DNA of 64,000 nucleotides from Candidatus Latescibacterota bacterium (lineage in GTDB: Bacteria; Latescibacterota; UBA2968; UBA8231): positions 64,001-128,000 of the forward strand of contig OZ241867.1 in assembly GCA_965203175.1 (NCBI GenBank). Direction: 5' to 3'. This document shows, piece after piece, positions 13,779-64,000 of this stretch. How positions within the stretch are numbered: position 1 is the first letter of the stretch; each line of letters starts with the position of its first letter. A program made the translations under genes and the position numbers. A model generated the notes under the pieces. It saw only the letters and a list, made by a program, of their open reading frames with translations. It had not been told where the DNA came from and searched no databases.

Positions 13779-15398
13779 TCACTGATCGCTATTTCTCTCT
13801 TCTATCGTTACGTACCGATTGACCGGCAAGTCGGTAAAAATTTCGCGGTGTTGATCGGGCCAGCGCACTTCGAGCGTATCGACCAACTTGACGCGCCCCA
13901 GCCCGAAGTGGAGGCGACGGTCCTCGCTGGAGAGGAAGCTGCTGCCGCAGATGAGGTCGCGGATCTGCGTCCGCTTGCCAGCGACGAGTCGCGCTCGGGC
14001 GCCAATGCCATCGCGGTTGCCGCGCGTACCAACCAAGCGCAGGCCCAGCCAATTCTGCTGGTTGCCCACATCATTTCGCAACAGCGAGGGCTGATCGTCG
14101 AGATTGGCAACGAAAACGTCCAAGTCCCCATCGTTGTCAAAGTCGAGCACGTTGGCTCCTCGGCTGACGCGAGGCACCTCGGAGCCGAGCGCGACCTGCG
14201 TAAACGTTCCGTTGCCAACATTGGCAAAGAGATGATTGGGCTGGGCGTACGCACTGCCGCTGCCGGCGCGGTCGATCTGCGGATACACGTGGCCATTGGC
14301 CACCAACAGATCGAGATCTCCATCGTGGTCATAGTCGAAAAAACCCGTACCAAAGCCCACGTGTGCCCATCCCACGCGCGCTAAGGCAGCTTCCGCACTG
14401 ACATCCGCAAAGATGCCATCGCCCTCGTTGCGATAGAGGGTGTTGTACTCGTCTGCAAAATGCGTGGCGAGCAAATCGGGGCGACCGTCGCTGTCGTAAT
14501 CGCCCCAAGCTACCCCCATGCTCGCTTGGATTTGTCCGCCGCGGCCATAGGCCAAGCGGGCTGGAAGAGAGCGGTCAGTAAAGCGGCCATCGCCGCGATT
14601 GCGATAAAAAAAGTTCGGGCTGGAGTCATTGGCCACGAATAAGTCGGGCCAGCCGTCGTCATCCGCGTCCGCAAACAGGACGCCCAACCCGTAGCCCGGG
14701 GAAGGGTGGTTGAGGAGCGCCCAAGCAGTGATGTCGGCAAACTCGGTGCCGTCGTTGCGATAAAACACATCCGCAGCCCCCACCAATCCCCTCGGGCCGA
14801 CGAAGACCTCCACCCCCTTCCATTGAGCACCCAAGCGTTCTACCTCAGTCGAATCGAATACCGCATAGCTCGCCACGTACAGGTCGAGATCGCCGTCGCG
14901 GTCGTAGTCGGCCCAAGCCGCGCCCGTGCTCCAATGGGGCGTGGCCACGCCAGCCGCTGCGGCCACATCGACAAAGCGATCGCCGTCGTTGCGGAAAAGC
15001 AGATTCTCCCGCAACTGGGTCGCGTACAGGTCTTGGTCCCCATCGTTGTCAAAATCTGCGCTAGTCGCGCCCATGCCCCAACCAAGGCCCGCGACCCCAA
15101 ACGCCTCGCCCACATCAACAAAGCCGGTCGAGCCGTCGTTGCGGAAAAGCGCGTGGCCGCCGCCTTTGCCATTGACCCAGTAGAGATCCTGATCGCCGTC
15201 GCGGTCAAAATCGAGCGCGGCCGTGCCGCCGCCTTTGGCCTCGGGGATATAGCCCTTTGCCAAGCTGCCGCTCGTGTGGACGCGGGTCAGGCCGAGTTGG
15301 ACGGCCACATCGACGAAGGGCGCAAGCGGCTCGGCGGCAGCACAGCACGCCCACAGGACGCAGAGGCCGCCGGTTATATTTGCGGAAAATGCAGACAC
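13779..15398 (-). CDS. CRTAC1-family protein (FG-GAP/VCBS repeats plus ASPIC/UnbV)
   Basis: Many 'D[FY]DxDGDxDL' repeats; 'NRDGIGAR', 'GSSFLSS', 'LHFGLG', 'EVRWP'. Confidence 0.9.
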   Translation of the reverse strand: MSAFSANITGGLCVLWACCAAAEPLAPFVDVAVQLGLTRVHTSGSLAKGYIPEAKGGGTAALDFDRDGDQDLYWVNGKGGGHALFRNDGSTGFVDVGEAFGVAGLGWGMGATSADFDNDGDQDLYATQLRENLLFRNDGDRFVDVAAAAGVATPHWSTGAAWADYDRDGDLDLYVASYAVFDSTEVERLGAQWKGVEVFVGPRGLVGAADVFYRNDGTEFADITAWALLNHPSPGYGLGVLFADADDDGWPDLFVANDSSPNFFYRNRGDGRFTDRSLPARLAYGRGGQIQASMGVAWGDYDSDGRPDLLATHFADEYNTLYRNEGDGIFADVSAEAALARVGWAHVGFGTGFFDYDHDGDLDLLVANGHVYPQIDRAGSGSAYAQPNHLFANVGNGTFTQVALGSEVPRVSRGANVLDFDNDGDLDVFVANLDDQPSLLRNDVGNQQNWLGLRLVGTRGNRDGIGARARLVAGKRTQIRDLICGSSFLSSEDRRLHFGLGRVKLVDTLEVRWPDQHREIFTDLPVNRYVTIEERNSDQ

Positions 15399-15495
15399 TA
15401 GAAGCTATCTCAGTCGCTAGCATTTAGGTGCAGAGGCACCTCTTGTAACAGTCGATAGGGTATCGGACGGCTACAAGGCATATAAGGATAGCTGC

Positions 15496-17988
15496 CTAGT
15501 ACACGCTAGCGACGAGTTTGGTACTCGTAGTTTGCTCGCCTTCGGCGTCCACTTCCACGCCGACGCGACACACGTACAGTCCCGGCGGCAACAGCCGGCC
15601 CTGTCGATCGCGGCCATCCCAAGTCAGCCGCTGGACCCCTGCGGCGGTTGCGGCCGCCTGCTCGATGCGCTGCACCGACTGGCCGTCCAAGCCATAGACC
15701 TCCAGAACCAACGCCTTGGCTCCCTGCACTTGGAACACCGGAAAGACCAATTCCACCACGTCGTTGATCCCGTCTCCATTGGGCGTAAACGGATTCGACG
15801 ACGCAGCTACCTCACCTAAAACGGCCTTAGTAAAGGGCGTAAACACAGTCAGGCCGCGGCCCGCGTTGACTCCGTTATCCACCCGCTGCCACACTTGGTC
15901 GGCTCCTTGTCCTTGCCCGACCTGCACTTCAAAGGCATTGCTCACCAAGTAGAGCGCGCCGGCAAAGCGCAGCGACACGAGGTCCTGTCCCTGCACAACC
16001 GGCGCAGGCAGCCGCACCCACAGCGAATCTAGGCCGGTCGGCAGTCTCTCTAACTGATCGAGGCCGTACTGCTCTGCACCCACGGCTCCGTCAATCAAGT
16101 CCATCTCCGCGCCCGGCGGCAGCTCCACCAGCACTTGGTCAAATCCACTGTTGCCTTCTTGGAACGCGGGCCGCAAGAGCAAAGTGAACATCTGCGGCTG
16201 CCCGCGCTGGGACGCTCTGTTGGGGGTGATCTCGCCGAGAATTTGACTGGCGAGGGGCGCGTCCAGCGCGAGGCGCAGAGAGCGCAACAGCACGGCCGCG
16301 TCTGGATCGTCTGAGCGCAGGGTAGCCTCTATCATCACGTAGCGGCGCGGACTCGGCGAAGTGATGGGCGCACCCGACACCGAATAAGGCAGACTCCACG
16401 GACTCCAATCTGCACCGGGGATGATGGCAACGGTCGAATCGCCGCGCTGAAAGCTGAGCAATTTGCGGTACTTGGCCTCGGTCACTTCTTGGCCCGTGTT
16501 CGAGAAGTAGCGGATGTTCTGGCCGAGTTGATTTCCGCTGCGGCTGCGGACGCGCACTTGGGTGCCGGTCGGCGCGCTGGCTGTCCAGTGCATAGCCGAC
16601 AGAATGCGAGCGGCACCCCCCAATTCGATCGGCTCAGACGTAAGCGACACCTCGGGGAGAAAGCCGCGTCCGTATAGCTGTATCTCGCGGATGGCCGGAC
16701 GGGCCGACCCCCTGACCAAGGTGTAATTCATCCTGAAGTAACGCGCCTTGGTCAGCGGAAACACATTGTCCTGAAAGAGAATATTGCGATGCGCGGTTCC
16801 CTCTACACCTTCCAAGCCGCGCGCCGTCAATGCGACGTAGCTCAAGCTGCCATCCGGTGCGCGGCTGCCGTCGGAAAGCGCGATCCCGTAATTGGGAAAC
16901 GCCCGGCTGTACCTATCGCCAAAGACGATGGCAGTGCGGTTGACCCAGTACCAGGTTCCCAAGTCGAAATAGATATTGCGATGCGGATCCTGAAATACAA
17001 CCGCCGGATCGTTGCCGCTAAAGCCCACTTCCACGCTCCAGAAGGATCTCCACTCGCCATCTACAGTTAGCTTTTCCGCGCCCAAGTTGCCGTAGCCGAT
17101 AATCTCCCCGCCGCGGTCTAGGGCACCGAGGCTAATGTTGTCACCCATGGTCCACACCTCGACTTCGGTCAGCCGCGGCCTCTCCCGGCGATAGTATTCG
17201 ACCGGGCCTTGCCATTCCTCCTCAATGGCTTCGTATGCCGCTTGGTCGATCGGCCGCAAAACGCCGGAAGACTCGCGGCGGAAGTAGAGCACATCGCCGC
17301 GCTCTTCCTCCGGCAGACTGTTCCAGCGCGCGGCACTGATCTGCCCGGCCTGGCCCAAGTCGCTGGCCGTCGCCACCACCTGGAGAAACTGAATCAGCCG
17401 ACCAGTAAGCCCCGGGTCCACTTGGCGGGTAGGCTGCAACTCGAACTCATAGACGCGCTGCGATTTGTTTAATCCCTCGCTGTGGCCGGCGGGCAGGTAG
17501 CTGAAGGACTCGCTTTGCAAGAAGGCGGGATCGCCGTTGGCAGTGAGCACCTTGAACTGGAGGAATGGATCGCCTTGACCTTCAACGGCAAATTTCACCA
17601 CCACCTTCTGCGCCCACACTAGCCGCCCCAAGTCGATTTCGACCCACCACTTGTCGAGCGGGTCCGCCAAGTCCGGTTCCCAGAAGGTATCCTCCCGGCC
17701 ATCTAGAATGTTGGCAGCCCCCGCGAGGCCGGTTCCAGCACTGCGAATGCCACCTTGCACCCCATCTCCATAGGTGAACGCGCTGGCGTCCAAGGCGGCG
17801 TTGACCTGATCGCGGACAAAGACGGGCCGGACGCCTTCGGCGCTGAAGTCCAAGCTGCCCGGCGGAAAACCCCACTCCGGCCAGTGCTCCGGAGCGACGT
17901 TCAACCCTTCCTCGTCGAGTTGGTACGCTTGACACCACGCCGCCGATGCCGTCAGCAAAACCGTGCCCGCGATCGCAACGCTTTTCAT
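15496..17988 (-). CDS. Secreted long-type discoidin-like/FlgD-Ig protein (830 aa), ends in LVASVY
   Basis: Start reassigned to MKSVAIAG (signal peptide). Two F5/8-type-C-like 'DG...W...DLG' units; 'WSPWS.PY', 'SPSPRRY'; C-terminal 'NPFTPNGDGIND...WDGRD..G...PPGLY'. Close paralog of 27231-29750. Confidence 0.75.
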   Translation of the reverse strand: MKSVAIAGTVLLTASAAWCQAYQLDEEGLNVAPEHWPEWGFPPGSLDFSAEGVRPVFVRDQVNAALDASAFTYGDGVQGGIRSAGTGLAGAANILDGREDTFWEPDLADPLDKWWVEIDLGRLVWAQKVVVKFAVEGQGDPFLQFKVLTANGDPAFLQSESFSYLPAGHSEGLNKSQRVYEFELQPTRQVDPGLTGRLIQFLQVVATASDLGQAGQISAARWNSLPEEERGDVLYFRRESSGVLRPIDQAAYEAIEEEWQGPVEYYRRERPRLTEVEVWTMGDNISLGALDRGGEIIGYGNLGAEKLTVDGEWRSFWSVEVGFSGNDPAVVFQDPHRNIYFDLGTWYWVNRTAIVFGDRYSRAFPNYGIALSDGSRAPDGSLSYVALTARGLEGVEGTAHRNILFQDNVFPLTKARYFRMNYTLVRGSARPAIREIQLYGRGFLPEVSLTSEPIELGGAARILSAMHWTASAPTGTQVRVRSRSGNQLGQNIRYFSNTGQEVTEAKYRKLLSFQRGDSTVAIIPGADWSPWSLPYSVSGAPITSPSPRRYVMIEATLRSDDPDAAVLLRSLRLALDAPLASQILGEITPNRASQRGQPQMFTLLLRPAFQEGNSGFDQVLVELPPGAEMDLIDGAVGAEQYGLDQLERLPTGLDSLWVRLPAPVVQGQDLVSLRFAGALYLVSNAFEVQVGQGQGADQVWQRVDNGVNAGRGLTVFTPFTKAVLGEVAASSNPFTPNGDGINDVVELVFPVFQVQGAKALVLEVYGLDGQSVQRIEQAAATAAGVQRLTWDGRDRQGRLLPPGLYVCRVGVEVDAEGEQTTSTKLVASVY

Positions 17989-17995
17989 AGCTGCT

Positions 17996-19117
17996 TCAGT
18001 GTGGATCGCCCACGCGCCAGCGATGCCTTTCCACCCCATCCATGTCCAACTCAATCCCAAAACCCGGGCCTTCCGGCAACACGATGCAACTGTCCTCCAC
18101 TCGCAACGGCTCGGTGATTATCTCGTCCCGCCACTCAATGCCGGTGACGAACTCCATGGGAGCCACATTCGGTATGGAAGCCATCAAATGCGCGGCCGCT
18201 ATAATGCCGACTGGGCCTTTGGTGTTATGCGGCGATATGGGAACGTGAAAGGTATCGGCAATGGCCGCGATTTTGCGCACCTCGGTAATCCCGCCAGCGT
18301 ACATCAGGTCGGGTTGTGCCACGTCGATGCCGTCTAGATCCAACAATTGGCGGTAGTGGCTCTTGGTGTTCAGCCGCTCGCTGCCCATGACCGGAATGGA
18401 GATTTCCCGCCGCACTTTTGGATAGGCGTTCAGGTCATCCGGCGGCACGGGGTCTTCAAACACGTAGAGGTCGGATGACTCTATGGCGCGGGCCAAGCGG
18501 ATGCACTGGGCCACTGTGAAGCGGCCGTGGCAATCGATCAACAGCTTGACATCCGGCCCCACCGCTTCCCGCACCGCGGCGAAATGCTCTGCCGTCTCGG
18601 TCGGATGGCCATCGTCCGCGTACTGACCGAAGTCGGCCCCACTCCGCGACCGCGCTCCACCCTTGAGCGCAGTGTACCCCTCTTCTACCTTTTCCTGCGC
18701 CATTTTCGCCGAATCCTCGGGCGTGGCACCACCAAAGTGCGTATAGACCTCGACCCGGTCGCGGAACTTGCCGCCCAACAGCTCGACCACCGGCAGATTC
18801 GCCACCTTGCCCTTGATGTCCCACAGGGCTTGGTCAATGCCGCTCATGGCGCTCATCCACACGGGGCCCGCCATGCGCCAGATGCAACTCAGCGAGGAGC
18901 GCAGATAGAGCTTGTGCCACAAGTACTCGATGCGCGCCGGATCTTCGCCGATCAGTTCCTGTTTGAGATGCTCGATGGCAGCGACGACCACTGGCTCCTT
19001 GTTGGAATACGTGGCCTCGCCCAAACCCACTAGGCCCTCGTCTGTAAAGACCCGCACAATCGTCCATTTGCGGCCTGGCGAGTCGATCAGAATGGTATCA
19101 ATATCGCGTATTTTCAT
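17996..19117 (-). CDS. Mandelate racemase/muconate lactonizing enzyme family protein (DgoD-like sugar-acid dehydratase)
   Basis: Motifs 'TDEGLVGLGEA', 'SGIDQALWDIKGK', 'DCHGRF', 'FEDP', 'QPD', 'PHN'. Confidence 0.9.
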   Translation of the reverse strand: MKIRDIDTILIDSPGRKWTIVRVFTDEGLVGLGEATYSNKEPVVVAAIEHLKQELIGEDPARIEYLWHKLYLRSSLSCIWRMAGPVWMSAMSGIDQALWDIKGKVANLPVVELLGGKFRDRVEVYTHFGGATPEDSAKMAQEKVEEGYTALKGGARSRSGADFGQYADDGHPTETAEHFAAVREAVGPDVKLLIDCHGRFTVAQCIRLARAIESSDLYVFEDPVPPDDLNAYPKVRREISIPVMGSERLNTKSHYRQLLDLDGIDVAQPDLMYAGGITEVRKIAAIADTFHVPISPHNTKGPVGIIAAAHLMASIPNVAPMEFVTGIEWRDEIITEPLRVEDSCIVLPEGPGFGIELDMDGVERHRWRVGDPH

Positions 19118-20433: not shown

Positions 20434-20451
20434 ATCAATCTCCTTTCGCGC

Positions 20452-35081: not shown

Positions 35082-35109
35082 TGTGCGTCGTCCTTTGTTT
35101 TTTCCCGCG

Positions 35110-36853: not shown

Positions 36854-36893
36854 AAAAAAACCGCCATGCCAGGTCGGAAGCCCGGCATGGCGG
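36854..36893 (-). terminator. Intrinsic terminator/attenuator after the CBM9-like gene
   Basis: Minus strand reads CCGCCATGCCGGG-CTTCCGA-CCTGGCATGGCGG followed by TTTTTTT. Confidence 0.85.
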
Positions 36894-36922
36894 CATTCAA
36901 TCTACGCGCCTAAAGCAACTAA

Positions 36923-42879: not shown

Positions 42880-42885
42880 CAGACC

Positions 42886-51719: not shown

Positions 51720-53660
51720 TCAACCCCAGAAAATCACGTTGCCGACCATGCCGGTAAAGTGATCGACGAACAGGAAAAGCCCCCCCGGCACAATGTGCCC
51801 GGCGATCATGCCCATGAAAAAGGGACGCGTCCTGCGGTAGAGTGCCACGCCGCCGTAGCGCAGCACCGACACCTTGATCAGCCACGCCAAGAACATGTCG
51901 AACCAGAGGTGATCCATGATCCCGGTGGGACCGATGGGGTAGCCGAGAGGATGGAGGGGCCACCAGACGTAGTACCAGCGCGCCAGCATCAAGAGCAGCA
52001 TCACGCCCGCCCCAATCCCCGTGTTGATCCAACCCCACAGATGCGGCTCACTCGGCGTGCGAATCAAACTAGCGGCATAGTCGTAAAATCCGTGTTTACC
52101 CCCGGGTATTTTCAGGTTGAGCGCCCCGTACGAATAGCCCAGTTCCATAACCACCCACATCGACGAGACCAGCCCGACGGCCATGGCCAAGAGCATCGTC
52201 CAGAACAGCGGACGTTTCGAACCGCCAAAGCCCTCGCCCAACTTGAGGCTGTTAGCGGCTGACGTCATGGCGAAACTGCGCCCATTCGTCCAGAAAAAGG
52301 TCGTCGCTAGCACGACCATGCCCTGGGCACCGATGGCCGACGAGCCAACGGCGGAGACGACGATGGCCGCCGGGCCGACCGGGACCGAACCGTCCGAAAG
52401 TCCCCCTTCGGCGATTAGGCGAGTAAACCCTACAAAAAGCGCAAAAGCGGTAAATAAAAAGGCTAAGACGACCCAGACGGGCAGGCCCGCCAGCGAGAGC
52501 CACGCGACCATCACCGCGCTACTGGCCAGCAGGACGAGTACAGCCGTCCGGTAGGATAGAATTTCGCCGGAATCATCTACCGTCGGGTCTCCCCACAGGG
52601 CCTTGCGGCAAACCGCCCGCAGGTGCTTGCGGGCCGCGAATAGGCCAAACAGAAACAGGACCAGCATGCCACCCATCGACTGGTGGACGAGAATCGGATC
52701 GATGATCGAGTGCCCACCTCCCAGCATCTCCGAACTAGTGACGCCTAAGACGGCAAAGGTGGTGCGCAGGGCGTTGGCGAAGAGGTTAAAAAACCACAGA
52801 CTGAAGGCGATTTCGGTCTTGAGAAAGTAGAAAAAGCCCAAAATGTTGAAGCGGAATTTGAATTGCAGTTCGGACAGATTGTCGAAGATGGGCAAGATGA
52901 AGTGGATGGGATCTACATTGGTGGCAATGGGCACGGTCTCTGGGAAGTAGTTGTGTAGCCCGTGCAGGGTGCCCCAGACGGCCGGCACGGCAAAGCCGGT
53001 CCACATCACTGGGTTTTTGAAGAATGGAGCAATGCGGTCCCCCCCGGCGTCCTGTTCGGTGAGGGCCATTGGCACCTGGACCAGCGGATAGGTCAGCCGC
53101 TCGTAGTCGTTCCACTGCTTGCGCAGAATCGCCATCACGGCAATCATTGCCAAGAACAAGGCCCAGACCAAAGGCGCCCAGCGCAAGAACATCGGCAGCC
53201 AGCCAGCCCACGGGATGGACTGGCCCTGCTCCAAGCCCTCGTAAAAAGGCCACATGACCGCTAGGTCGCGCGGCTGCAACCAGTCGGCTATGTGGGGTTG
53301 GATGAGCGTGTGCCAGTCGTTTTCTGGTGTGGCATAGTAAAAGGGAGTAAGGATCGTGCCGATGAACCGGCTAGCAAAAAACACCGGCAGGGGCGAGGCC
53401 ATGACCATCATTATGTAGATGAGCAGGAGTTCGCCGCGGTTCAGCCCGGCTCGCGGATGGACTAGCTTGAGCAGTGGGTTGATTAAGCCAGCGAGAAAGA
53501 AGAGCAAGAACAGGGCACCGACCGTGCTGGTCCCGAGCGTCATGTACGAGCCGCGAAGATAGAAAACCCCATACGCGTCGCCCGCAGCCACGAAAAATGT
53601 AAATAGGCAGCCGAGCAGCAGCGCCTTGGGCGTGAAGACTCCGGCCGCTGGGGGTTGCAA
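51720..53660 (-). CDS. DUF6785/DUF6784-type polytopic membrane protein (putative transporter)
   Basis: 'ELLLIYIM', 'YYATPENDW', 'LRKQWNDYERLTYPL', 'WWPLHPLGY', 'YGGVALYRRTRPFFMGMIAG'. Confidence 0.75.
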   Translation of the reverse strand: MQPPAAGVFTPKALLLGCLFTFFVAAGDAYGVFYLRGSYMTLGTSTVGALFLLFFLAGLINPLLKLVHPRAGLNRGELLLIYIMMVMASPLPVFFASRFIGTILTPFYYATPENDWHTLIQPHIADWLQPRDLAVMWPFYEGLEQGQSIPWAGWLPMFLRWAPLVWALFLAMIAVMAILRKQWNDYERLTYPLVQVPMALTEQDAGGDRIAPFFKNPVMWTGFAVPAVWGTLHGLHNYFPETVPIATNVDPIHFILPIFDNLSELQFKFRFNILGFFYFLKTEIAFSLWFFNLFANALRTTFAVLGVTSSEMLGGGHSIIDPILVHQSMGGMLVLFLFGLFAARKHLRAVCRKALWGDPTVDDSGEILSYRTAVLVLLASSAVMVAWLSLAGLPVWVVLAFLFTAFALFVGFTRLIAEGGLSDGSVPVGPAAIVVSAVGSSAIGAQGMVVLATTFFWTNGRSFAMTSAANSLKLGEGFGGSKRPLFWTMLLAMAVGLVSSMWVVMELGYSYGALNLKIPGGKHGFYDYAASLIRTPSEPHLWGWINTGIGAGVMLLLMLARWYYVWWPLHPLGYPIGPTGIMDHLWFDMFLAWLIKVSVLRYGGVALYRRTRPFFMGMIAGHIVPGGLFLFVDHFTGMVGNVIFWG

Positions 53661-56475: not shown

Positions 56476-56577
56476 GTAAAATCATCTCATCCTGAAAGGA
56501 GGTTGCACAGCTTGTTGAAAGACACTTTCCACATCCCTTTTTCTTTTTCCATCTCTTCCAATCAAGGAGCGCATAGA

Positions 56578-57486
56578 ATGAGAAAGTTTGGCTTTTTCGC
56601 CTTGTCTTTTGGGCTGGCGTGCCTGTTGAGCACGGCCGCTTTTGCCCACGTAGGCGTGACCGTGTTCTATCCCCAGGTGCCGGATCCGGCTGCCATCACC
56701 ATCGACGGCAACGACGACGACTGGGGTTGGTACGACCCGGCTCTCGCCCTCAATCAGCCCGATTTCTTCGACCGAGCCAGCGATTTCGTCGAGTTGTCGG
56801 ACTACGATTTCACCATCCTCAATGCTTGGTCGGCGGAGCCAGACAACAAGTGGTACGGCTTTGCGCGCTTTGTCGATGACACCCTCAAGTACGATTCGCC
56901 CGTCAAGGAGTGGTGGAAGGACGACTGCTTGCAGATAACCGTGGACGCCGATCACCTCGGCGGCAACATTCTCGGCTCCGACCTCGAGCAGATTGGCAAT
57001 GGCCAGCGCTGGCATGTGCGCATCTTCCCGCCAGCCGGCGAGTCCCTGTTGCCCAATCAGACCTGCTTCTTCTACAGCCAGCTAGAGTTCATCGACTCTA
57101 CAGAGCTGCTCTGGGGAGTCGAGCCGGAGTTTTTCGAGGCTGCGTGGACCGTCCTGCCAGCGGGTGCCGAGAATCTGACGGTCGGGGTTACGTACACCTA
57201 TGAGTGGCGGGGTGCCCTGTGGGACATCTGGGGCCTGAGCGAGAGCGAGAGCACGCGGCACACGTTCGCTGAGGACGACGTGATTCACCTCGGCTATCGC
57301 CCGCTCGACGCCGACCGCCCCGGCGGTGGACGCAAGCACTCCATGTACATCAACGATGGCAGCCAGTCGCAGGACGTCGACGCTTCGCAGATGCCCGACT
57401 TCTGGGCGCTGGCGGCAACGGAGACTAACGTGGAAAACGACACTTGGGGCCACATCAAAAACAGCATGTCCGAACGCCTCAAGTAG
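56578..57486 (+). CDS. Secreted DOMON/CBM9-like protein with C-terminal 'TNVENDTWGHIK' motif
   Basis: ATG 56578 with AAGGAG RBS; signal peptide ending AFA-H; 'ITIDGNDDDW', 'DADHLGG', 'TYEW'. Confidence 0.65.
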   Translation: MRKFGFFALSFGLACLLSTAAFAHVGVTVFYPQVPDPAAITIDGNDDDWGWYDPALALNQPDFFDRASDFVELSDYDFTILNAWSAEPDNKWYGFARFVDDTLKYDSPVKEWWKDDCLQITVDADHLGGNILGSDLEQIGNGQRWHVRIFPPAGESLLPNQTCFFYSQLEFIDSTELLWGVEPEFFEAAWTVLPAGAENLTVGVTYTYEWRGALWDIWGLSESESTRHTFAEDDVIHLGYRPLDADRPGGGRKHSMYINDGSQSQDVDASQMPDFWALAATETNVENDTWGHIKNSMSERLK

Positions 57487-57508: not shown

Positions 57509-57568
57509 AGGGGAAGGGGCACATGCGCCCCTTCCCCTTAATCATTTGCGTCGCCCGTTCGGGCGACG
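57509..57568 (+). terminator. Two tandem hairpins after the CBM9-like gene (weak terminator or mRNA-stabilising structure)
   Basis: AGGGGAAGGGGC-ACATGC-GCCCCTTCCCCT (57509-57538) and CGTCGCCC-GTTC-GGGCGACG (57549-57568); no long U-tract. Confidence 0.6.
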
Positions 57569-57593: not shown

Positions 57594-59627
57594 GTGAGAA
57601 GTCGTCTGAAAATTCTTAAAGGGGCAATCTTGGCCTGTGTTGTGCTGGTGGGCGTTTGCAGCCCCGGGGTGGCGCAAGAGTGGTGGCAGTTCGGCGGGCA
57701 GGGTGGCGTTTCGCCGGCGGAAGTGGCGGACTTCAGCCTAATGCTAGACGACGCAGCCGCTTCCCACGCACTCCAGCCCTTTGAACTCGACCCGAGCGAA
57801 AACATCTTGCCTCTGCTCGGCCCCTGGCAGCGCTGGCGCTTTCCCACCGACCCGCAATTCCGCTCCGGCCATCCGCGCTTCTGGACGGACATCAACCACG
57901 ACAGGCTATACCAAGCCACGGAAAGTTTTCTCTTCGTCGATGGGGATCCAACCACATACATAGAGCGGCGGGACTTAGCTGGCATTTTTTATACCATAGA
58001 CTTGGGCACCCAAGTGCCCGTAGAGCGCTTTGTCTTTTTCCCTCCCGAAGGCGTCAGTCCCGAAAGCGACGAGCCTTTCAGGCCCAATTACATCCTCAAG
58101 TCCTATAGTCTGACGGCCGCCAAAGCCGAAACCGGCATTATGGAAGAGGAGCTGGAGCGCGGGTTCGTCTGGCGGGGCGACGGGCCGTGTTGTCCGTTGG
58201 CCATCCCCCTCGGCTACGAGGAGCGCAATGCCGACGCGGTGACCGAAATCGCGTTTCCCACGCAATACCTCCGCTTCTTCCGCCTAATAGCCATCCCCGA
58301 CGGATTTACCCTGTACGGCGACCCCATCGTCACGCGCTCGGCCTTTGCCGAGATGGAAATCTACGGCCGGGGCTTCGCTCCGCAGGCGACCTATGAGTCG
58401 CAGATCATAGATTTGGGACGGGAGGTCAACTTCGGACAGGTGCGCTTGGGGCTGAGCAAATGGCGCAAGGACGGAGAACAACTGCTGCCGTCCGACGGCC
58501 CAACCCGCGCCCAAGTGGAAATCCGCACGGGGCGCGACGACAGCCCAACGGCTTATTTCGGCTTTGACGATCTAGGCGCCCACGTAGAGGTAACCAAGAA
58601 GCAATGGGATCGACTAATACCGCTAGAAACGCGCGGCGCTACCATAGCGGTCGGCTATCGCGGTCCAGTGGCCGCAGACTTGGAAAACTGGAGCTTTTGG
58701 TCGCTACCGTTGGAGGATTCGGGCCAGAATCCGCGCCTGCCGTGGGGTCGCTACTTTCAATTGCGCGTCCGGCTAGAAACAGAAGCGCTGTGGGAATTCG
58801 CCCGCCTCGATTCCCTGCAAATCGAGATCGCGCCCCTGTTGGCCGACCGGGTCGTCGGCGAGGTCGTCCTCGCAGAGGAACCCCACCCCCAAGGCGGGCA
58901 AGTGCGCGTACCCGCGGGTGCGAAAACCCCATTCACGTACGACCTAGGCGTGGAATTTGCCAGCGCGGACCGCATCGGCTGCGACGCCGTGCGCATTTTG
59001 GCACCAGCGGAAGCCACATTTCGCTATCTGGAGATGGGCGACCCGCTCAGCGTCGTAGAGCCGGATAGCCTGCTGCGCGAAGCAAGCGGCTTTGTCGTGT
59101 TCTTGCCTCGCCCCTTGCATCCGAGCGGTGATCGGCGGCTGCGCATCGGCCTCGAAGCCGTGCTGTACGGCGAGGCTGGCGAATTTGGCGGCGAAGTCTT
59201 CAACCGCCACGAGCCGAGCTTGTTACAGCGCATCGAAGGAGGGGACGTCAGCGCAGAGCTAGGTTCCAACCAGTTGCTCGTCGTGGCATCTGCCACCTCC
59301 TCGGGCGGGGTCCTAGGAGACATCAAGGCGGGTAACGGCGCGTTTACCCCTCAAGGCGATGGCGTAAATGACCTGTTGTCCATACAATACACCCTTTTCC
59401 GAGTGCGAGAGTCGTCCCAAGTGCAAGTCGGCCTCTACGCCCTCGACGGGCGGCCGGTATGGCAGGCACCGCCAAGCGTACAGGGCGCAGGACGCCATGC
59501 GGTCCACTGGGACGGCCGGGACGCGGCCGGGCAACTGGTCCGCCCAGGCGTGTACCTAGCGCGTGTGGAAGTGGAAACGGATCAGGGGCGAGCGGTGCGG
59601 TTGCAGCCCGTCGCCGTGATCTATTGA
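57594..59627 (+). CDS. Secreted short-type discoidin-like/FlgD-Ig protein, ends in PVAVIY (start approximate)
   Basis: Signal peptide ...SPGVA-QE; 'FVDGDPTT...IDLGTQVPVERFVFFPP', 'WSFWS.P', 'FTPQGDGVND...WDGRDAAG...PGVY'. Confidence 0.75.
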   Translation: MRSRLKILKGAILACVVLVGVCSPGVAQEWWQFGGQGGVSPAEVADFSLMLDDAAASHALQPFELDPSENILPLLGPWQRWRFPTDPQFRSGHPRFWTDINHDRLYQATESFLFVDGDPTTYIERRDLAGIFYTIDLGTQVPVERFVFFPPEGVSPESDEPFRPNYILKSYSLTAAKAETGIMEEELERGFVWRGDGPCCPLAIPLGYEERNADAVTEIAFPTQYLRFFRLIAIPDGFTLYGDPIVTRSAFAEMEIYGRGFAPQATYESQIIDLGREVNFGQVRLGLSKWRKDGEQLLPSDGPTRAQVEIRTGRDDSPTAYFGFDDLGAHVEVTKKQWDRLIPLETRGATIAVGYRGPVAADLENWSFWSLPLEDSGQNPRLPWGRYFQLRVRLETEALWEFARLDSLQIEIAPLLADRVVGEVVLAEEPHPQGGQVRVPAGAKTPFTYDLGVEFASADRIGCDAVRILAPAEATFRYLEMGDPLSVVEPDSLLREASGFVVFLPRPLHPSGDRRLRIGLEAVLYGEAGEFGGEVFNRHEPSLLQRIEGGDVSAELGSNQLLVVASATSSGGVLGDIKAGNGAFTPQGDGVNDLLSIQYTLFRVRESSQVQVGLYALDGRPVWQAPPSVQGAGRHAVHWDGRDAAGQLVRPGVYLARVEVETDQGRAVRLQPVAVIY

Positions 59628-59646: not shown

Positions 59647-60411
59647 ATGAAAGCATGGATAAGCTGTCTGCTGTGCGCCGCGCTGCTCGTCGCAGGATGC
59701 GGGCACAAATTGGGCTATCGCCACTTTGCCGGCCCCGTATTGCCGGCCACTGATTTGGCAGGAGCGGATTTCGTCGTCCGCGACGACCACAGCATCACCT
59801 TCGTCAAAGATCGCTTGGAGGTGAGTTTGTTGCCGCTGACCGTGGCCATGCTCAACCGGCAGCTAGGCAGCCACTCGCAGCGACCGGAGGGCTTCCACGA
59901 CCCCAACCCCTACCTCGCGCCGGTCAATCCCTACACCTATGGCGACTGGAAGCCAGGCTGGGAAGAGGAGCATCCCACCCGCTTTACGGTCTTTCTGCTC
60001 AAGGTCAAAAACTACGCGTACCCCAAGGTGTGGCTCAATCCCTACTCCATAGAGATTGCCAGCGCCAACGGCCGGCGCTACCAAGCCTTCACCAAGCTGG
60101 CGCTAGACGAGTACTTCGCCCCTTATGCCATAGGCTATGCGGGCAATACCTTCCTCCCCTTCCGCGAGCGGCGCGACCTGCTGCTCCGCACCTTGTATCC
60201 AGAAGACGAGATGATCTTCAGCGGCCAAGAGCTCGAAGGTTTCATCGCCTTTGCCCCACTGGCTAACGATGTCGAAGCGTTTGAAGTGCGAATCCCGGAG
60301 ATGGTACTACGCTTTGACTACCGAGATCAGCCAGTGGAAACCATAGACATCACCTACCCATTCACGCGCGAAGTGTACTTGGCCAAACACCGCCGCGCCG
60401 AGGAGCTCTAA
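59647..60411 (+). CDS. Hypothetical lipoprotein
   Basis: Lipobox LVAGC; beta-rich C-terminus ('FTVFLLKVKN', 'EGFIAF'); translationally coupled to the PPIase gene. Confidence 0.65.
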   Translation: MKAWISCLLCAALLVAGCGHKLGYRHFAGPVLPATDLAGADFVVRDDHSITFVKDRLEVSLLPLTVAMLNRQLGSHSQRPEGFHDPNPYLAPVNPYTYGDWKPGWEEEHPTRFTVFLLKVKNYAYPKVWLNPYSIEIASANGRRYQAFTKLALDEYFAPYAIGYAGNTFLPFRERRDLLLRTLYPEDEMIFSGQELEGFIAFAPLANDVEAFEVRIPEMVLRFDYRDQPVETIDITYPFTREVYLAKHRRAEEL

Positions 60412-62096
60412 TGGTGCTCGCTCGGGCCGTTGTGGGAGTCGCCCTCGCGTCGCTGTGGTGGAGTGGCTGCGGGCCGCAAGTGGATGGCGATGTGGTCGCC
60501 AAGGTAGGCGACGAAGAAATCAAGCTCGCAGACCTGCGCCAGTTCCGCGAAGAGTCCACCGCCAACTACCGCGATCCCGAAGAGGGAATCCAGGCGTGGC
60601 GCTTCTACTTGCAGACGATGATCGACATGAAGTTGATGCTCATCGCCGCACAGGAGCAACGGCTAGATCAGACAGTGGAGTTCGTGCGCCAATGGGATCG
60701 GGAACGACGCAAAAAACTGGTTGATGAGTACGCCGTGCGGACCATCCTCGCGGATGTAGATCTCGCCGTGGACAGTATGCGTCAGGAGTTTGCGACGAAC
60801 AAGTGGAATCGGATGCTGCGCTTGGCCCATATTCGCACCGCCAGCGCGGCAGAAGCCCAAAAGGCCATGCGCGACTTGGAGCAAGGGCAGGATTTTGCCG
60901 AGGTGGCCCGCGAGCGTTCCATCGCACCATCAGCCGACCACGGCGGAGTGATCGATGCCTGGTACGGGCGCGGCAACTTAGAGGAAATGGGCTTGCCCAT
61001 AGAAGTAGGAGAGCAGGTATTCGACCTACAGGTTGGGGATTTGAGCCAACCCTTACTCGTGGGGGAACACTACGAGATTTTTAAGGTGCTGTCCCAAGGC
61101 CCCGCCCCTACGCACTACCGAGCGGCCTTCTTGCGCGAGCAATACTGGAATGAGTTTCGCACTCGCTGGAATGGGCTGATCGTACAGCTCAAAGACCGGC
61201 TAGACGCACAGTTGGATGGCGAGGCGATCCGGTTATTGGTCGATAGAATGGCCGAATCCGACGGCCGGGGAATGCTGTTGGGTCCCGAAGAGCAGGAAGT
61301 GATCCTCTGCCGCTTCAAGGGCGGACAGGTAACGCTGCTGGATTTCGCCGAAACCTATAACGCCTATTGGTTCATCCGCTCGGTTTCCTTCGACAGCAGT
61401 GGGATTGCCGAGTTCGTCCACCGGGATCTCTTACCGCGAGTCCTCGTCTATCAAGCGGCCTTGCAGGAAGGCTTGGACCAAGATTCGACCATAGCGGCCT
61501 GGTTGCAGGACAAGAAAAAATCGCTGCTGCTCGAAGCTCTCCGCAGAGAAGAGGTAGTGCAGCAAACCGAAGTTGACAGCGCCATGGCCCGCCAGTACTA
61601 CGACGACCATCCGCAAATGTTCATGGAACTGGAAGAGATTCAGATGGCGGAAGTGCTGGTGGCGACCCGCGCCGAGGCGGAACAGCTCTTGCAGCGGGTC
61701 CGCGCTGGCGAACGCCTAGAAACGCTAGCCGCCCGCCACACGCTGCGCACGGATGCCGAGGGCGGGCATGGGCAATACCACATCCACAATCACCCCTCCG
61801 AACGGCGAGTTTTCGGTGCCCTCTACGACTCAGTAGTCGCCGCGCCGGTAGGAGTACTCACCGGCCCTGTAGCCCTCGACGAAGGTTATTCGATCTTCGA
61901 AGTGCGGGAGCGCATTCCCCCGCGTCCCACGCCCTTTGAACAGGCGGCCTCGCGGGCGCAGTGGTGGGTGCAAAAGCGGCAAGAAAAGACTCTCTTCGAC
62001 TCCTTGTTCATCCGGCTCAGGAATCAATACGCCGATAGAGTTGTGGTGTTTGAAGAGCAGTTGGGCAGACTAGACGCCAGCCCCGCTAGCCCATGA
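60411..62096 (+). CDS. SurA/PrsA-like parvulin-type PPIase lipoprotein (two PPIase domains)
   Basis: Lipobox WSGC; 'VVAKVGDEEI', 'LRLAHI....A..A...L..G.DFAEVARERS....A..GG', 'GDLSQP', 'GVLTGPV....GYSIFEV'. Confidence 0.82.
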   Translation: MVLARAVVGVALASLWWSGCGPQVDGDVVAKVGDEEIKLADLRQFREESTANYRDPEEGIQAWRFYLQTMIDMKLMLIAAQEQRLDQTVEFVRQWDRERRKKLVDEYAVRTILADVDLAVDSMRQEFATNKWNRMLRLAHIRTASAAEAQKAMRDLEQGQDFAEVARERSIAPSADHGGVIDAWYGRGNLEEMGLPIEVGEQVFDLQVGDLSQPLLVGEHYEIFKVLSQGPAPTHYRAAFLREQYWNEFRTRWNGLIVQLKDRLDAQLDGEAIRLLVDRMAESDGRGMLLGPEEQEVILCRFKGGQVTLLDFAETYNAYWFIRSVSFDSSGIAEFVHRDLLPRVLVYQAALQEGLDQDSTIAAWLQDKKKSLLLEALRREEVVQQTEVDSAMARQYYDDHPQMFMELEEIQMAEVLVATRAEAEQLLQRVRAGERLETLAARHTLRTDAEGGHGQYHIHNHPSERRVFGALYDSVVAAPVGVLTGPVALDEGYSIFEVRERIPPRPTPFEQAASRAQWWVQKRQEKTLFDSLFIRLRNQYADRVVVFEEQLGRLDASPASP

Positions 62097-62152: not shown

Positions 62153-63796
62153 GTGGCCGCGGTTTTGTCTTTGTGGGTGCTGCTCGTCGTGGGCAGCGCA
62201 GGATGCGGGCCAGCAGACCCGGAGATCAAACCGGCATTTGTCGAGGTGGCACAGGAGGCGGGCATTGAATTCCACCATCAGAATGGGGCGAGTGGGCGCT
62301 ACTACTATGTGGAAACCTATGGGTCGGGCGCGGCCTTCCTCGACTACGACAACGACGGAGACCAAGACCTCTATGCAGTCAACAGCGCGCCGCTGCCGGG
62401 TTTTGTCGCCGAGGACCTCCCCACCAACGCGTTCTATCGCAACCGAGGCGACGGAACCTTTGCCGATGTGACGGAGAGCACGAAGACGGGCCATCCGGGC
62501 TATGGCATGGGTGCTTGCGTCGGGGACATCGACAACGACGGGCACGTAGACCTGTACGTGACCAACTTCGGTCCCAACGTCCTGTATCGCAATCAGGGCG
62601 ACGGAACCTTTGCCGATCAGACGGCCGACGCTGGAGTCGGCGATCCCCGCCTGAGTACTAGCGCGGCGTTTGCCGACATCGACAACGACGGCGATCTAGA
62701 CCTCTATGTAGCTAACAACGTCTCCATTGACCTTGCGTACGACGAAGGGTGTCACCAAGGAGCGGTCCCGGTCTATTGCGCCCCCACTCAGTACAAAGGA
62801 GAATCCGGTGCCCTCTTCCGCAACGACCAGAGCGGGAAGTTCGCCGATATTACCCGGCCGGCCGGCGTGTACAGCGAAGCCGGCCGCCAGTTGGGCGTCG
62901 TCTTTGGCGACTACGACGGCGACGGCGACGCGGACCTATATGTGGCCAACGACATGAAGGCCAATTTCCTCTTCCGCAACGACGGTGCAACGCGGTTCGC
63001 CGAAGTGGGTTTGAGCGCGGGGGTAGCCCTCAGCGAGAGCGCTCGCCCCGAGGCCGGCATGGGCACGGACTTTGGCGATTGCGACCGGGACGGCGACTTG
63101 GATATCGTAGTCTGCAACTTCCAATGGGAGAGCTGCCGCTTCTATCGCAACGACAGCGACGGCACATTTGCCGACTTGAGCTTTCCGTCGGGGTTGGGTG
63201 AGCCTACGCTTTCTACCCTGACGTTTGGCACGGATTTTTTCGACTACGACAACGATGGCGACTTAGACCTTTATCTGGCCAATGGCCACGTCCATCCAGA
63301 AGTGCAGGTGTTCGACCAAGCTGCGTCCTATCCGCAGCCGGACCAACTCTTTGCCAACGACGGGGCTGGACGGTTTGCGCTGGTGCCGACTACGGCCTTG
63401 GGCGGAGTCGGCCGGGGCGCGGCGTTTGCCGACGTCGACAACGACGGCGATCTGGATGCTTTTGTCTCCAACAACAATCAACGGGCGTTTTTGCTGCGCA
63501 ACGACAGCGGCCAACGCAACCACTGGATCGCCTTTAAGACCATAGGCCGGGTCAGCAACCGGGATGGGATCGGGGCGGTGATCCAGGTGGTAAGCGGCGA
63601 TTTAGTACAGGTCGAAGAGGTGCGCAGCGGCAGCAGCTATCTCTCGCAAAACGATCTGCGGGTGTACTTCGGCTTGGGCCAGCGCAAACAGGTGGATCGC
63701 GTCCAGATCCGCTGGCCCAGCGGGATTGTGCAGACGCTCGTACAAGTGCCCATCGACCAGATCCACCAAGTAGAAGAACCTCCTTCCTCCGGCTGA
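62153..63796 (+). CDS. CRTAC1-family lipoprotein (FG-GAP repeats plus ASPIC/UnbV)
   Basis: 'SAGC'; 'GSGAAFLDYDNDGDQDLY' and many DxDxDGDxD repeats; 'NRDGIGA', 'SGSSYLSQND', 'YFGLG', 'IRWPSG'. Confidence 0.9.
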   Translation: MAAVLSLWVLLVVGSAGCGPADPEIKPAFVEVAQEAGIEFHHQNGASGRYYYVETYGSGAAFLDYDNDGDQDLYAVNSAPLPGFVAEDLPTNAFYRNRGDGTFADVTESTKTGHPGYGMGACVGDIDNDGHVDLYVTNFGPNVLYRNQGDGTFADQTADAGVGDPRLSTSAAFADIDNDGDLDLYVANNVSIDLAYDEGCHQGAVPVYCAPTQYKGESGALFRNDQSGKFADITRPAGVYSEAGRQLGVVFGDYDGDGDADLYVANDMKANFLFRNDGATRFAEVGLSAGVALSESARPEAGMGTDFGDCDRDGDLDIVVCNFQWESCRFYRNDSDGTFADLSFPSGLGEPTLSTLTFGTDFFDYDNDGDLDLYLANGHVHPEVQVFDQAASYPQPDQLFANDGAGRFALVPTTALGGVGRGAAFADVDNDGDLDAFVSNNNQRAFLLRNDSGQRNHWIAFKTIGRVSNRDGIGAVIQVVSGDLVQVEEVRSGSSYLSQNDLRVYFGLGQRKQVDRVQIRWPSGIVQTLVQVPIDQIHQVEEPPSSG

Positions 63797-63798
63797 GC

Positions 63799-64000
63799 AT
63801 GAGCAACCAGTGGAAAAGATCTCGAGCGCGCTGCTGGGCTGTCGCCTGCCTACTAGCCCTGATCTACGGGTGTACACCCACCGAGGAAAGCCTAGGCGAG
63901 CGGGAGGTCCGCTACCAGCGCCAGATCGCGGAAGACCCGACGGACGCCGAAGCCCATTACGCGCTCGGCCAGGTGTACCACGAACAAGCGCGCTACCCCG
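63799..64000 (+). CDS. TPR-containing lipoprotein (3'-truncated by window edge)
   Basis: Manual translation MSNQWKRSRARCWAVACLLALIYGCTPTEESLGEREVRYQRQIAEDPTDAEAHYALGQVYHEQARYP: lipobox IYGC and TPR motif 'P.DAEAHY.LG.VY'. Confidence 0.75.
   Translation, partial: MSNQWKRSRARCWAVACLLALIYGCTPTEESLGEREVRYQRQIAEDPTDAEAHYALGQVYHEQARYP

Follow-up and report, generated by a model that had tools for sequence, protein, structure and literature searches.

A candidate surface display and capture module, built around a predicted giant outer-membrane barrel, is repeated throughout a Latescibacterota genome

What kind of envelope system is encoded by a stretch of DNA in which the same unusual set of genes for secreted and membrane proteins occurs twice, each time around an AT-rich divergent spacer? 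The stretch in question, called the window below, comprises 64,000 nucleotides (positions 64,001 to 128,000 of contig OZ241867.1, assembly GCA_965203175.1, Candidatus Latescibacterota bacterium) and sits in a single-contig genome of 6,579,469 bp, 93% complete with 6.5% contamination according to the tool's figures. A sequence-only reading of the window had proposed an undescribed, repeated envelope module made of an outer-membrane protein (X), proteins with FlgD-like C-termini (F), CBM9-like proteins (B), DUF6785 membrane proteins (D), peptidyl-prolyl isomerases (PPIases; P) and CRTAC1-like proteins (C), and had likened it to a polysaccharide utilization locus (PUL) without SusC and SusD. A family of lipoproteins (L) is added here. 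As shown below, X, F and B form the core of the module, which recurs 39 times in this genome and in all 80 kept loci of related genomes, and D and C are separable from it. [quoted passage not shown]

An operon type repeated in the genome and across the phylum

Genes were called over the whole genome with our own greedy open reading frame (ORF) caller, using no annotation, and families were assigned by BLASTP. The 5121 ORFs included 62 X, 169 F, 59 C, 53 D, 44 B, 38 P and 17 L, with the X profile matching 81 pieces of the genome. The recurring gene order was B, hairpin, (L), one to three F, one to three X and P, as in the gene-order strings BLFFFXpc, pxfffb and pxxfffb. The 39 X clusters spanned 921,632 bp, or 14.0% of the genome, and contained 62 X, 132 F, 39 C, 37 B, 37 P, 32 D and 16 L along with 121 other ORFs. 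An F gene was the immediate neighbour in 48 of the 62 X cases, compared with about 6.5% expected from its frequency (169/5121), and another X gene in 26/62. In tblastn searches 63 of 63 X instances had F within 10 kb, 24 of 56 D genes lay within 10 kb of an X, and none of the 53 D genes had X as its immediate neighbour.

The same arrangement was found outside this genome. Scanning of species-representative genomes confirmed X at 479 loci. The best 80 of these were kept, and 61 of the 80 have full flanks; many are orthologues in close relatives and do not count as 80 independent cases. These loci came from metagenome-assembled genomes labelled Latescibacterota, Gemmatimonadota, Handelsmanbacteria and, in one instance, Planctomycetota, with X sharing 47-98% identity with the window. 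Among the 61 full-flank loci, F was present in 61, B in 54, P in 54, D in 31 and C in 23, and among all 80 kept loci F was present in 80, B in 67 and P in 59. The frequency of the PPIase genes in the full-flank loci is consistent with the earlier suggestion that the module has dedicated folding factors. Chance is ruled out for the gene pattern, given the excess of F as immediate neighbour of X over expectation and the occurrence of F beside X in 80/80 loci. In addition, contigs from relatives, 92-99% like positions 24000-43900 of the window, occur in sponge, marine and coral RNA libraries.

The distribution of the families was further followed in a phylum sample of 151 genomes, the source genome being counted in the totals only. 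Overall, X was present in 94, F in 82, B in 91 and DUF6785 in 137 genomes. In family f1 all four were found in 63/63 genomes. In families f2, f3 and f4, none of X, F or B was found (0/30, 0/19 and 0/2, respectively, for each of the three), and DUF6785 was present throughout (30/30, 19/19 and 2/2). Family f10 showed X-like proteins in 12/13 genomes (weaker matches), F in 1/13, B in 13/13 and DUF6785 in 0/13. Comparing the rows ourselves, every F-positive genome was X-positive, as were 90 of the 91 B-positive genomes. X, F and B thus constitute the core of the module, with one shared distribution across the phylum sample. Co-occurrence across related genomes, as the sequence-only reading had envisaged it, therefore holds for these three families; independent scattering, the pattern it had set against a system, was seen for DUF6785 only.

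No publication describing the X/F/B system was found, in agreement with the earlier view that it is undescribed, and no paper was found on Latescibacter together with type IX secretion, nor on Gemmatimonadota PULs together with T9SS. In the sections drawn on here, the study of Latescibacter by Youssef et al. (2015; PMC4454575) assumes non-specific porins and makes no mention of an X/F/B system. The present genome thus devotes about 14% of its 6.6 Mb to a single operon type whose signature families (X, the F scaffold with its Tyr-terminated C-terminal domain, and B with its Trp-Gly (WG) tag) are without described function, and operons of this type also fill related genomes of marine, sponge and coral origin.

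The predicted X barrel, the F proteins and the B proteins

X1 and X2, the two X proteins of the window, had no Pfam or NCBIfam match, and specifically no Plug, TonB_dep_Rec, SLH, POTRA or usher domain in Pfam; comparison of the X profile with Protein Data Bank (PDB) sequences gave nothing. A word-indexed search identified 886 X relatives among the scored candidates, and an exhaustive search gave 765 X clusters (50% identity) at E values up to 1e-3. The 120 listed relatives had no Pfam domain, and all given names were "hypothetical protein". An AlphaFold2 model of X1 built from 28 sequences, with a predicted local distance difference test score (pLDDT) of 66.9 and a predicted TM-score (pTM) of 0.62, showed some 32 long strands over residues 156-909 (our own count from the DSSP list). 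Every Foldseek match of this model up to E 1e-3 was an outer-membrane barrel, with SlpA of Deinococcus first (E 1.4e-8, TM-score 0.22) and then MtrB, LptD, porins and SusC, all TM-scores being near 0.2. The VIA structure search, which is independent of Foldseek, likewise listed barrels only, with a best Z of 14.5 over 248 residues (root-mean-square deviation 7.2 Å) and 200-390 residues aligned per row. SusC and BtuB matched as partial barrels only in the structure searches. X is accordingly described as a new family, predicted from the model to form an outer-membrane beta-barrel of very large size, with roughly 30 strands, which agrees with its earlier assignment to the outer membrane.

Other placements of X were considered. 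The Pfam family SlpA_C matched three of ten distant X relatives at 16.5-19.8 bits, compared with a 35-bit cut-off, and matched neither X1 nor X2. The nearest Atlas placement, at 0.89, was DUF6029, a TonB-receptor-like barrel, and is taken as a lead only. A relationship to SprA in shortened form was dropped, as hhalign against the genome's own SprA gave a probability of 0.2%. The acidic insert of X1 (window approximately 33230-33515) is nearly invariant and contains repeated D/N-x-D/N-x-D motifs (DDNDDQD, DENND, DMNNN), which we take to resemble calcium-binding loops.

The F proteins were modelled with higher confidence. The model of the F protein encoded upstream of X1 (pLDDT 88.2) is a chain of beta-sandwiches with a CBM32-like N-terminal domain (Foldseek 4a44, TMt 0.75; 3ggl, 0.64), followed by Ig-like domains and a terminal beta-sandwich that matched the C-terminal domain (CTD) region of PorU in Foldseek; no catalytic domain was seen in the model. 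Against sequences of solved structures only FlgD matched, for the CTD. All seven F proteins of the window had discoidin (F5/8 type C) matches in Pfam and, at the C-terminus, matched the type-B model CHU_C (E 8e-7 to 2e-3) and FlgD_ig (E 3e-11 to 1e-3), and NCBIfam gave the PorU CTD region for the F CTD at E 2e-9. The likeness between the seven extends over most of their length and is not confined to the tail (25-61% identity, BLASTP). The F proteins are thus probably surface or secreted proteins with predicted glycan-binding capacity, and the domains seen in the model, a CBM32-like head and Ig-like domains, are compatible with the surface binders proposed from sequence.

A hidden Markov model of the F tail (last 95 residues) retrieved 243 ORFs of the genome with a C-terminal CTD, comprising 169 F and 74 others. 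The C-terminal residue was Tyr in 169/169 F proteins (VAY, VVY, LAY and similar) and in 0/74 of the other CTD proteins, 55 of which ended in K or R. The genome thus has two CTD classes, the Tyr-terminated one being encoded beside X. With its hydrophobic and small residues and terminal Tyr, the F tail presumably resembles the beta-signal of outer-membrane proteins. A member of the other class is found in the window at 10933-12999 (minus strand), an FG-GAP protein that ends in KMMKLP and whose CTD matches the type-A model Por_Secre_tail along with FlgD_ig but does not match CHU_C.

The genome also encodes components of a T9SS, which the earlier reading had not considered. SprA is present as a single copy (618 bits, cut-off 200), PorU scored 632 bits (cut-off 420), and PorV (Pfam, 54 bits; cut-off 27) is encoded directly downstream of PorU. 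A genome-wide search for PF11751 (PorP_SprF) gave no match, though the control gave none either. The T9SS is the likeliest export route for the F proteins. At genome C1:2958213-2969087 (L122) the order of genes is porU, porV, an FG-GAP/M6-like protein with a type-A tail and a PD40/peptidase protein; in this lineage the porU-porV locus may represent the attachment complex's core.

B1 and B2, the first B proteins recognised in the window, had no Pfam or NCBIfam match, and comparison of the B profile with solved structures returned nothing meaningful. They did not match each other by BLASTP at 1e-5. They are nevertheless placed in one family because both hit the same ORFs in other loci and share an N-terminal His and a C-terminal tail. 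The earlier grouping of these two genes as one CBM9-like family is thus upheld as regards the family, without a direct match between the two and with a likeness to CBM9 below cut-off; a third copy, at 44431-45375, had been overlooked. This third protein, B3, scored 17.5 bits against CBM9_1 (cut-off 23.4), B1 gave no match, and four of 27 B relatives matched, with a best E of 1.4e-4. None of Pfam's families for lytic polysaccharide monooxygenases (LPMOs) matched the B relatives at E values up to 0.05.

A His directly following a canonical signal peptide (A-x-A|H, the cleavage site being judged by eye) was found in 35 of the 44 B paralogues, and His was the first mature residue in 27/27 rows of the cross-genome B alignment. 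A second His, His120 in a D-x-D-H-S-G-G context, was present in all 35 B proteins with the first His and absent from eight of the nine without it. Copper "histidine-brace" proteins are characterised by an N-terminal His paired with a second one. Asp is also invariant at many positions of B, and these could form calcium sites like those of CBM9. The literature found on the histidine brace and DOMON consisted of LPMO papers, none of them on the B family.

The gap behind B is also distinctive. A hairpin of -25 kcal/mol or lower was found within 100 nt downstream of 34/44 B genes, as against 15/300 random genes, 7/169 F genes and 4/62 X genes; a finer scan found one behind 36/44 B genes, with a T-run behind the stem in 16 of these. 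Both hairpins noted earlier in the window stood out against shuffled sequences (Table 1). When metatranscriptome contigs from four libraries were mapped to positions 24000-43900, the word depth of the B contig was 10-20 times that of the downstream F/X contigs in three of the four libraries (two of three studies), with values of 262 versus 22-27, 111 versus 5-9 and 175 versus 10-13. In one RNA library a contig with adaptor at both ends spanned 36926-37820, nearly exactly the B gene. These depths hint that B is an abundant product of the operon, contig word depth being a poor measure that cannot rank genes and RNA libraries being liable to contain DNA.

The tail of B has the consensus T-A-V-E-x-x-S-W-G-x-I-K-x-x-F, encoded in the window at 36926-36970 and 57440-57486. 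The pattern [ST]W[GA].[IVL]K occurred in 90 of the 5121 ORFs and in 90/90 lay within the last ~21 residues; no membrane segment follows this WG tag. B proteins accounted for 38 of the 90. The other 52 are unrelated secreted proteins, several of them in tandem arrays (for example at genome C1:1361532-1382219 and 4966210-4983946); some have PD40-like sequence and none starts with His. A search of the literature with the tag strings found no paper. The possibility that WG-tagged proteins are obligatory partners of CTD proteins was not supported: 9/52 non-B members adjoin a CTD ORF compared with a random mean of 4.5 and a maximum of 11. Judged from its sequence pattern, the WG tag looks like an undescribed sorting or docking signal and, borne by about 90 secreted proteins per genome, it points to an undescribed sorting step.

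Separable neighbours and the remainder of the window

Every gene listed in the sequence-only reading proved to be an open frame where it had been placed and of the family it had been given (ORF list, Pfam, BLASTP), and the features of the two operons are collected in Table 1. The start of the F gene at 35110 is most likely the ATG behind the hairpin. Identity in an all-against-all BLASTP of the window was 43% for the pair of CRTAC1-like proteins and 30% for the PPIase pair. The two divergent spacers, reported earlier as AT-rich, have 65.9% and 55.5% AT compared with 40.9% in the window. The tetratricopeptide repeat (TPR) gene at the window's edge had been taken as divergent; it starts at 63799, on the same strand as 62153-63796. 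No TonB-dependent receptor or SusD was detected among the 40 window ORFs scanned with Pfam, as had been noted.

Table 1. Coordinates of the features of the two window operons and adjoining genes (CTD, C-terminal domain; aa, amino acids)
Feature	Position	Strand	Description
C1, FG-GAP + UnbV_ASPIC (CRTAC1-like)	13779..15398	-	Pfam
F (long)	15496..18060	-	854 aa; 61% identical to 27231-29780
D1, DUF6785 + DUF6784 polytopic membrane protein	25218..27203	-	429 and 105 bits; ~12 hydrophobic segments
F (long)	27231..29780	-	849 aa; discoidin domain and CTD
Isochorismatase-family gene, inside operon 1	29747..30457	-	Pfam; kept in orthologous loci (12/80 loci)
F (short)	30471..32372	-	633 aa; FlgD_ig 36.2 bits and CHU_C 29.5 bits, both above Pfam cut-off; ends ..VAVVY
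X1	32385..35120	-	911 aa; predicted outer-membrane beta-barrel; conserved N-terminal region ~40-160, acidic insert ~536-630
F (short)	35110..36834	-	574 aa from ATG at 36834; signal peptide, CBM32-like head, two Ig-like domains, CTD ending ..VTIAY; Pfam F5_F8_type_C, CHU_C, FlgD_ig
Terminator-like hairpin between B1 and first F gene	36860..36894	-	14-bp stem then TTTTTTTATAT; z-score -4.0 vs shuffles
B1	36923..37807	-	Secreted, 294 aa; first gene of operon 1; weakly CBM9/DOMON-like; His first mature residue; ends in WG tag ..AVEAVGWGRLKSTFAE
P1, parvulin-type PPIase	37940..39397	+	Lipobox-like N-terminus; divergent from B1
B3, third B-family gene	44431..45375	-	N-terminal His present, WG tail absent; 49% identical to 56356-57486
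PL4 rhamnogalacturonan-lyase-like gene	45461-47326	divergent from B3	Pfam
F (long)	47333..49720	-	795 aa
F (short)	49735..51700	-	Listed ORF reaches 52038, overlapping D2; start probably near 51680; signal peptide ~residues 130-148 of ORF
D2, DUF6785 + DUF6784	51720..53660	-	397 and 97 bits; 40% identical to D1
X2	53664..56303	-	879 aa; 41% identical to X1 over 848 residues
B2	56578..57486	+	His first mature residue (..AAFA|HVGV); tail ..DTWGHIKNSMSERLK
Two G/C-rich hairpins behind B2	57510..57568	+	-63.4 kcal/mol over 126 nt, z-score -5.7; first stem ~57510-57537
F (short)	57594..59627	+	ORF listed from 57546
L, lipoprotein (..LVAGCG..)	59647..60411	+	254 aa; 17-member family without Pfam match
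P2, PPIase with two parvulin domains, SurA-like	60411..62096	+	Lipobox
C2, FG-GAP + UnbV_ASPIC lipoprotein	62153..63796	+	Pfam
TPR lipoprotein start	63799..64000	+	508 aa; runs off window; genome C1:127799-129325

Two families counted earlier as parts of the module turned out to be separable from it. DUF6785 is a large, separately amplified and more widely used family of membrane proteins, as is evident from its presence throughout families f2-f4 (51 genomes), which gave no X, F or B, and from the lack of any match to it in the 13 genomes of f10. A first look at f2-f4 genomes (for example G007, G013 and G051) gave 21-68 DUF6785 candidates each. Comparison with sequences of solved structures gave nothing, no paper on DUF6785 was found, and the 120 listed homologues carried DUF6785 or DUF6784 only and were all named hypothetical. 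The nearest Atlas clusters, annotated as "peptide transporter" or OPT, stood at 0.77-0.79, below the level of a lead, and a genome search with PF03169 gave one other ORF at 25.4 bits, just below cut-off; an OPT-type peptide transporter is accordingly retained as a lead only. Immediate neighbours of DUF6785 genes genome-wide included GFO_IDH_MocA (5/80), PhyH (4) and FtsX (4), along with a single ThuA, 3-keto-disaccharide hydrolase and glucose/sorbosone dehydrogenase. The CRTAC1-like proteins pair with TPR lipoproteins rather than with X, with a TPR neighbour in 28/59 cases and an X neighbour in 1/59. The PPIases of the window matched Rotamase_2 above cut-off (59 and 75 bits) and SurA_N_3 weakly (16.6 bits).

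The remaining genes inside the X clusters were surveyed in two Pfam tallies, obtained by feeding unrelated proteins to an alignment tool (an off-label use), each covering the 25 most frequent families, so that single-member families may be hidden. Outside the window the X clusters contain 118 ORFs that belong to none of the families; the first tally comprised 110 of them, all but the eight longest, and the second 80 ORFs, namely the 72 not clustering with a TPR seed and those eight. TPR proteins accounted for 36 of the 110 ORFs, and a census of neighbours gave 34 TPR ORFs in clusters, many with lipoboxes. Among the 80 non-TPR ORFs were PhyH (5), FGE-sulfatase-like (4), spermine-synthase-like (4), sulfatase (2), enolase (2), Amidohydro_2 (2), aldo-keto reductase (2) and SBP_bac_5 (2) matches. 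No glycoside hydrolase appeared among the 25 most frequent families of either tally. This content fits carbohydrate and sugar-acid metabolism loosely and is not the profile of a classical PUL. Of the earlier description as a PUL analogue, the capture module is retained, and the label itself is weak, with no glycoside hydrolase family in the tallies and TPR proteins dominating. PMT_2 (ArnT/PMT-like glycosyltransferase) matches were found in nine ORFs inside X clusters, and some long ORFs of the TPR group (650-930 aa) in these clusters have hydrophobic N-termini; both are hints of an envelope glycosylation linked to the X clusters.

Within the window, the PL4-like gene of the segment 44431-47326 is the only clear polysaccharide-cleaving enzyme. 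Positions 19153-25202 (minus strand) are occupied by five genes in tandem, from two families without Pfam or NCBIfam match. Family A (19153-20433 and 21650-22912) is 72% identical and has an N-terminal membrane segment, and family B' (20452-21528, 22953-23996 and 24144-25202) is 66-77% identical and has a signal peptide. Locally the G+C content is lower (~0.54), each family has three copies genome-wide, and both are kept in orthologous loci (L001-L005). The rest of the window encodes a Wza/Wzz pair, a molybdopterin dehydrogenase, an enolase-superfamily gene, an ABC sugar transporter and an Amidohydro_2 gene in addition to the PL4-like lyase (Pfam).

Readings of the module and comparison with known systems

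The interpretation favoured here, with rather less than even confidence, is that of a T9SS-related display and capture module, in which F proteins dock on the neighbouring X barrel to give a glycan-binding surface complex, with uptake through X as a possible further function. Each operon copy would build such a complex on the cell surface. F would be exported through SprA and held there by docking of its special CTD onto the adjacent X barrel, and the parvulin lipoprotein P may escort or fold X or F in the periplasm. B, as the putative most abundant product, would work on or bind the captured polymer, possibly via a metal site formed by its N-terminal His and second His, and X may also pass fragments inwards. 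The DUF6785 permeases and the pairs of CRTAC1 and TPR lipoproteins would be frequent but separable neighbours, and the 39 diverged copies would confer different ligand specificities.

Several observations weigh against this interpretation. Binding of F by X is a proposal made by analogy, and X is not homologous to PorP/SprF (about 30 strands compared with 14, and without a Pfam match). A complex prediction of X1 (residues 40-911) with the CTD of the upstream F protein (residues 477-574) gave 0.01 and 0.00 compared with a mark of 0.32, and has no bearing on binding either way. The model of X is of moderate quality only, its N-terminal region (30-162) and acidic insert (~536-630) being poorly modelled, and these are the regions where most invariant columns lie. 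The window F proteins mostly fall below Pfam cut-offs, one of seven passing CHU_C and three of seven FlgD_ig, and the F CTD scored 23 bits against TIGR04131 (cut-off 35). GldM was not found in the genome search, though the control genomes gave no match either. The RNA contigs on which the abundance of B is judged come from relatives of this strain (92-99% alike), and one of the three studies lacks the B excess. Duplication of whole operons, moreover, keeps neighbours together regardless of contact, so that synteny within one genome overstates the link, and related genomes are not independent. Carried to its extreme, this last argument would mean that there is no system at all and that a paralogue-rich region owes its neighbourhoods to accidents of duplication, since operon duplication alone can keep gene order within one genome. 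Such a view is, however, very hard to sustain, because the same neighbours surround X copies only 47-55% identical, and recur in 80/80 kept loci of other genomes, and because X, F and B share one distribution in the phylum.

The closest competitor, possible though doubtful, is an import machine in which X, above all a substrate channel, does the work of SusC but without TonB, F and B serve as surface binding or lid proteins, DUF6785 is the inner-membrane permease and each cluster serves one glycan class. The CBM32-like head of F and the weak CBM9 likeness of B are in keeping with it, as is the room for a wide pore that a barrel of ~30 strands would leave. Of the 53 DUF6785 genes, 32 lie inside X clusters, with D in both window operons; genes for sugars and sugar acids lie near in the window (PL4 lyase, enolase-superfamily gene, Amidohydro_2, ABC sugar transporter), GFO_IDH_MocA, ThuA and 3-keto-disaccharide hydrolase genes adjoin D elsewhere, and the only SusD-like match in the genome (SusD_RagB, 37 bits) carries an internal stop codon. 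However, D and X separate by family (D 51/51 and X 0/51 in f2-f4, D 0/13 and X-like 12/13 in f10), and within the genome fewer than half of the D genes are within 10 kb of an X and none is immediately beside one. No glycoside hydrolase is among the 25 most frequent cluster families, X has no Plug or TonB-receptor match, and the genome already has about 27 ordinary TonB-dependent receptors for uptake. A non-nutritional function is less probable still: X could be a SlpA-like structural barrel carrying exchangeable lectins, in a variable coat or adhesin repertoire for attachment to hosts or particles or for evasion of phages or grazers. The first rank of Deinococcus SlpA among the Foldseek matches, the weak SlpA_C matches in 3/10 distant relatives, the many diverged X copies and the occurrence of similar contigs in sponge, marine and coral RNA libraries could be read in this way. 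The TM-score to SlpA is just 0.22, though, the Pfam score is 20 bits compared with a 35-bit cut-off, X lacks an SLH domain, and permease and catabolic genes are interspersed in the clusters. A dedicated translocon or insertase, with X exporting B (by its WG tail) or F independently of SprA in a two-partner- or usher-like manner and P as its chaperone, seems more improbable again. The parts list does match that of a translocon (large barrel, PPIase, TPR lipoprotein), both B and F have conserved C-terminal signals, and the presumed likeness of the F tail to a beta-signal would fit as well. Yet 52/90 WG-tagged proteins are not B and are mostly encoded far from X, SprA, PorU and PorV are already present in the genome, X has no POTRA or usher domains, and 62 separate translocons would be without precedent.

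A more far-reaching version of the capture idea is considered an outside chance, on a par with the coat. Here the clusters would constitute a third independent route of polymer acquisition in the Fibrobacteres-Chlorobi-Bacteroidetes (FCB) group, in addition to SusCD and to TonB receptors of the plain kind: the highly expressed B would represent a new family of copper histidine-brace oxidases, with a CBM9/DOMON-like fold, that cuts polysaccharides oxidatively, F lectins delivered by the T9SS would hold the substrate on X, X would admit the oxidised fragments, and the WG tag and Tyr-CTD would act as undescribed sorting signals. This would explain why clusters contain sugar-acid, lactonase and oxidoreductase genes yet hardly any glycoside hydrolases. 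Should B be a true copper enzyme, it would represent a new family of oxidative polysaccharide-degrading enzymes. Should the display and capture interpretation be correct, the cargo-anchor logic of the T9SS would extend beyond Bacteroidota, with a different and much larger barrel, and the operon would, like susC/susD, serve as a genomic marker by which substrate-specific loci could be counted and classified in a lineage that is widespread and uncultured.

The likeness of B to histidine-brace copper proteins (LPMOs AA9-AA17, X325 and CopC) lies in a small, secreted, probably beta-sandwich protein with His as first mature residue and a co-varying second His ~100 residues on, encoded in loci with glycan-binding modules; unlike these, B has no LPMO family match and only a weak one to CBM9_1, and as read from the alignment its invariant Asp residues could point equally to calcium. 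With the 30-strand barrel of Deinococcus SlpA (PDB 8ae1), its best Foldseek match, X shares a similar length and the character of a very large outer-membrane barrel; it differs in its low TM-score and identity (0.22 and 10%) and in having neither an SLH domain nor a coiled coil. As in SusC/SusD PULs, many diverged copies occur, a barrel and surface glycan-binding proteins are encoded in one operon, and the host belongs to the FCB group. In contrast to such PULs, no TonB-dependent receptor or SusD is found in the 40 scanned window ORFs, no enrichment in carbohydrate-active enzymes is visible and no regulator genes were noted in the family tallies, and the binding proteins are putative T9SS-type cargo rather than lipoproteins.

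The nearest parallels are within the T9SS itself. According to Lauber et al. (2024, PMC10994853), the subunits of the SprA translocon include SprE, a TPR lipoprotein, and a PPIase whose function is unknown, so that a giant barrel, a PPIase, a TPR lipoprotein and CTD substrates are common to its extended form and to the present clusters; unlike X, SprA has 36 strands and more than 2000 residues and is single-copy here; the PPIase of the present clusters, P, is a parvulin lipoprotein. In Bacteroidota, as described by Gorasia et al. (2022, PMC9143113), type-B CTD cargo binds cognate PorP/SprF-like barrels encoded beside it, of which F. johnsoniae has ten, six adjoining genes for PorE-like lipoproteins with TPR, beta-propeller and OmpA-like domains. 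Compared with the 14-strand, FadL-like PorP, X is larger (~900 residues, roughly 30 strands) and has no PorP_SprF match; there are 62 barrels rather than ten, with two or three cargo genes per barrel, B, L and the parvulin PPIase are extra fixed members, TPR and propeller are separate proteins, and binding is assumed by analogy. On the other hand, CTD surface proteins are likewise encoded beside a paralogous outer-membrane barrel thought to hold them, several cargo/barrel pairs occur per genome with TPR and beta-propeller lipoproteins encoded nearby, and the CTD class of the cargo is separate from the PorV-dependent one. Because the X clusters hold the same kinds of parts (barrel, cargo, PPIase, TPR and propeller), the arrangement proposed here is filed, by analogy, as a putative variant of the theme of cargo, cognate PorP barrel and PorE.

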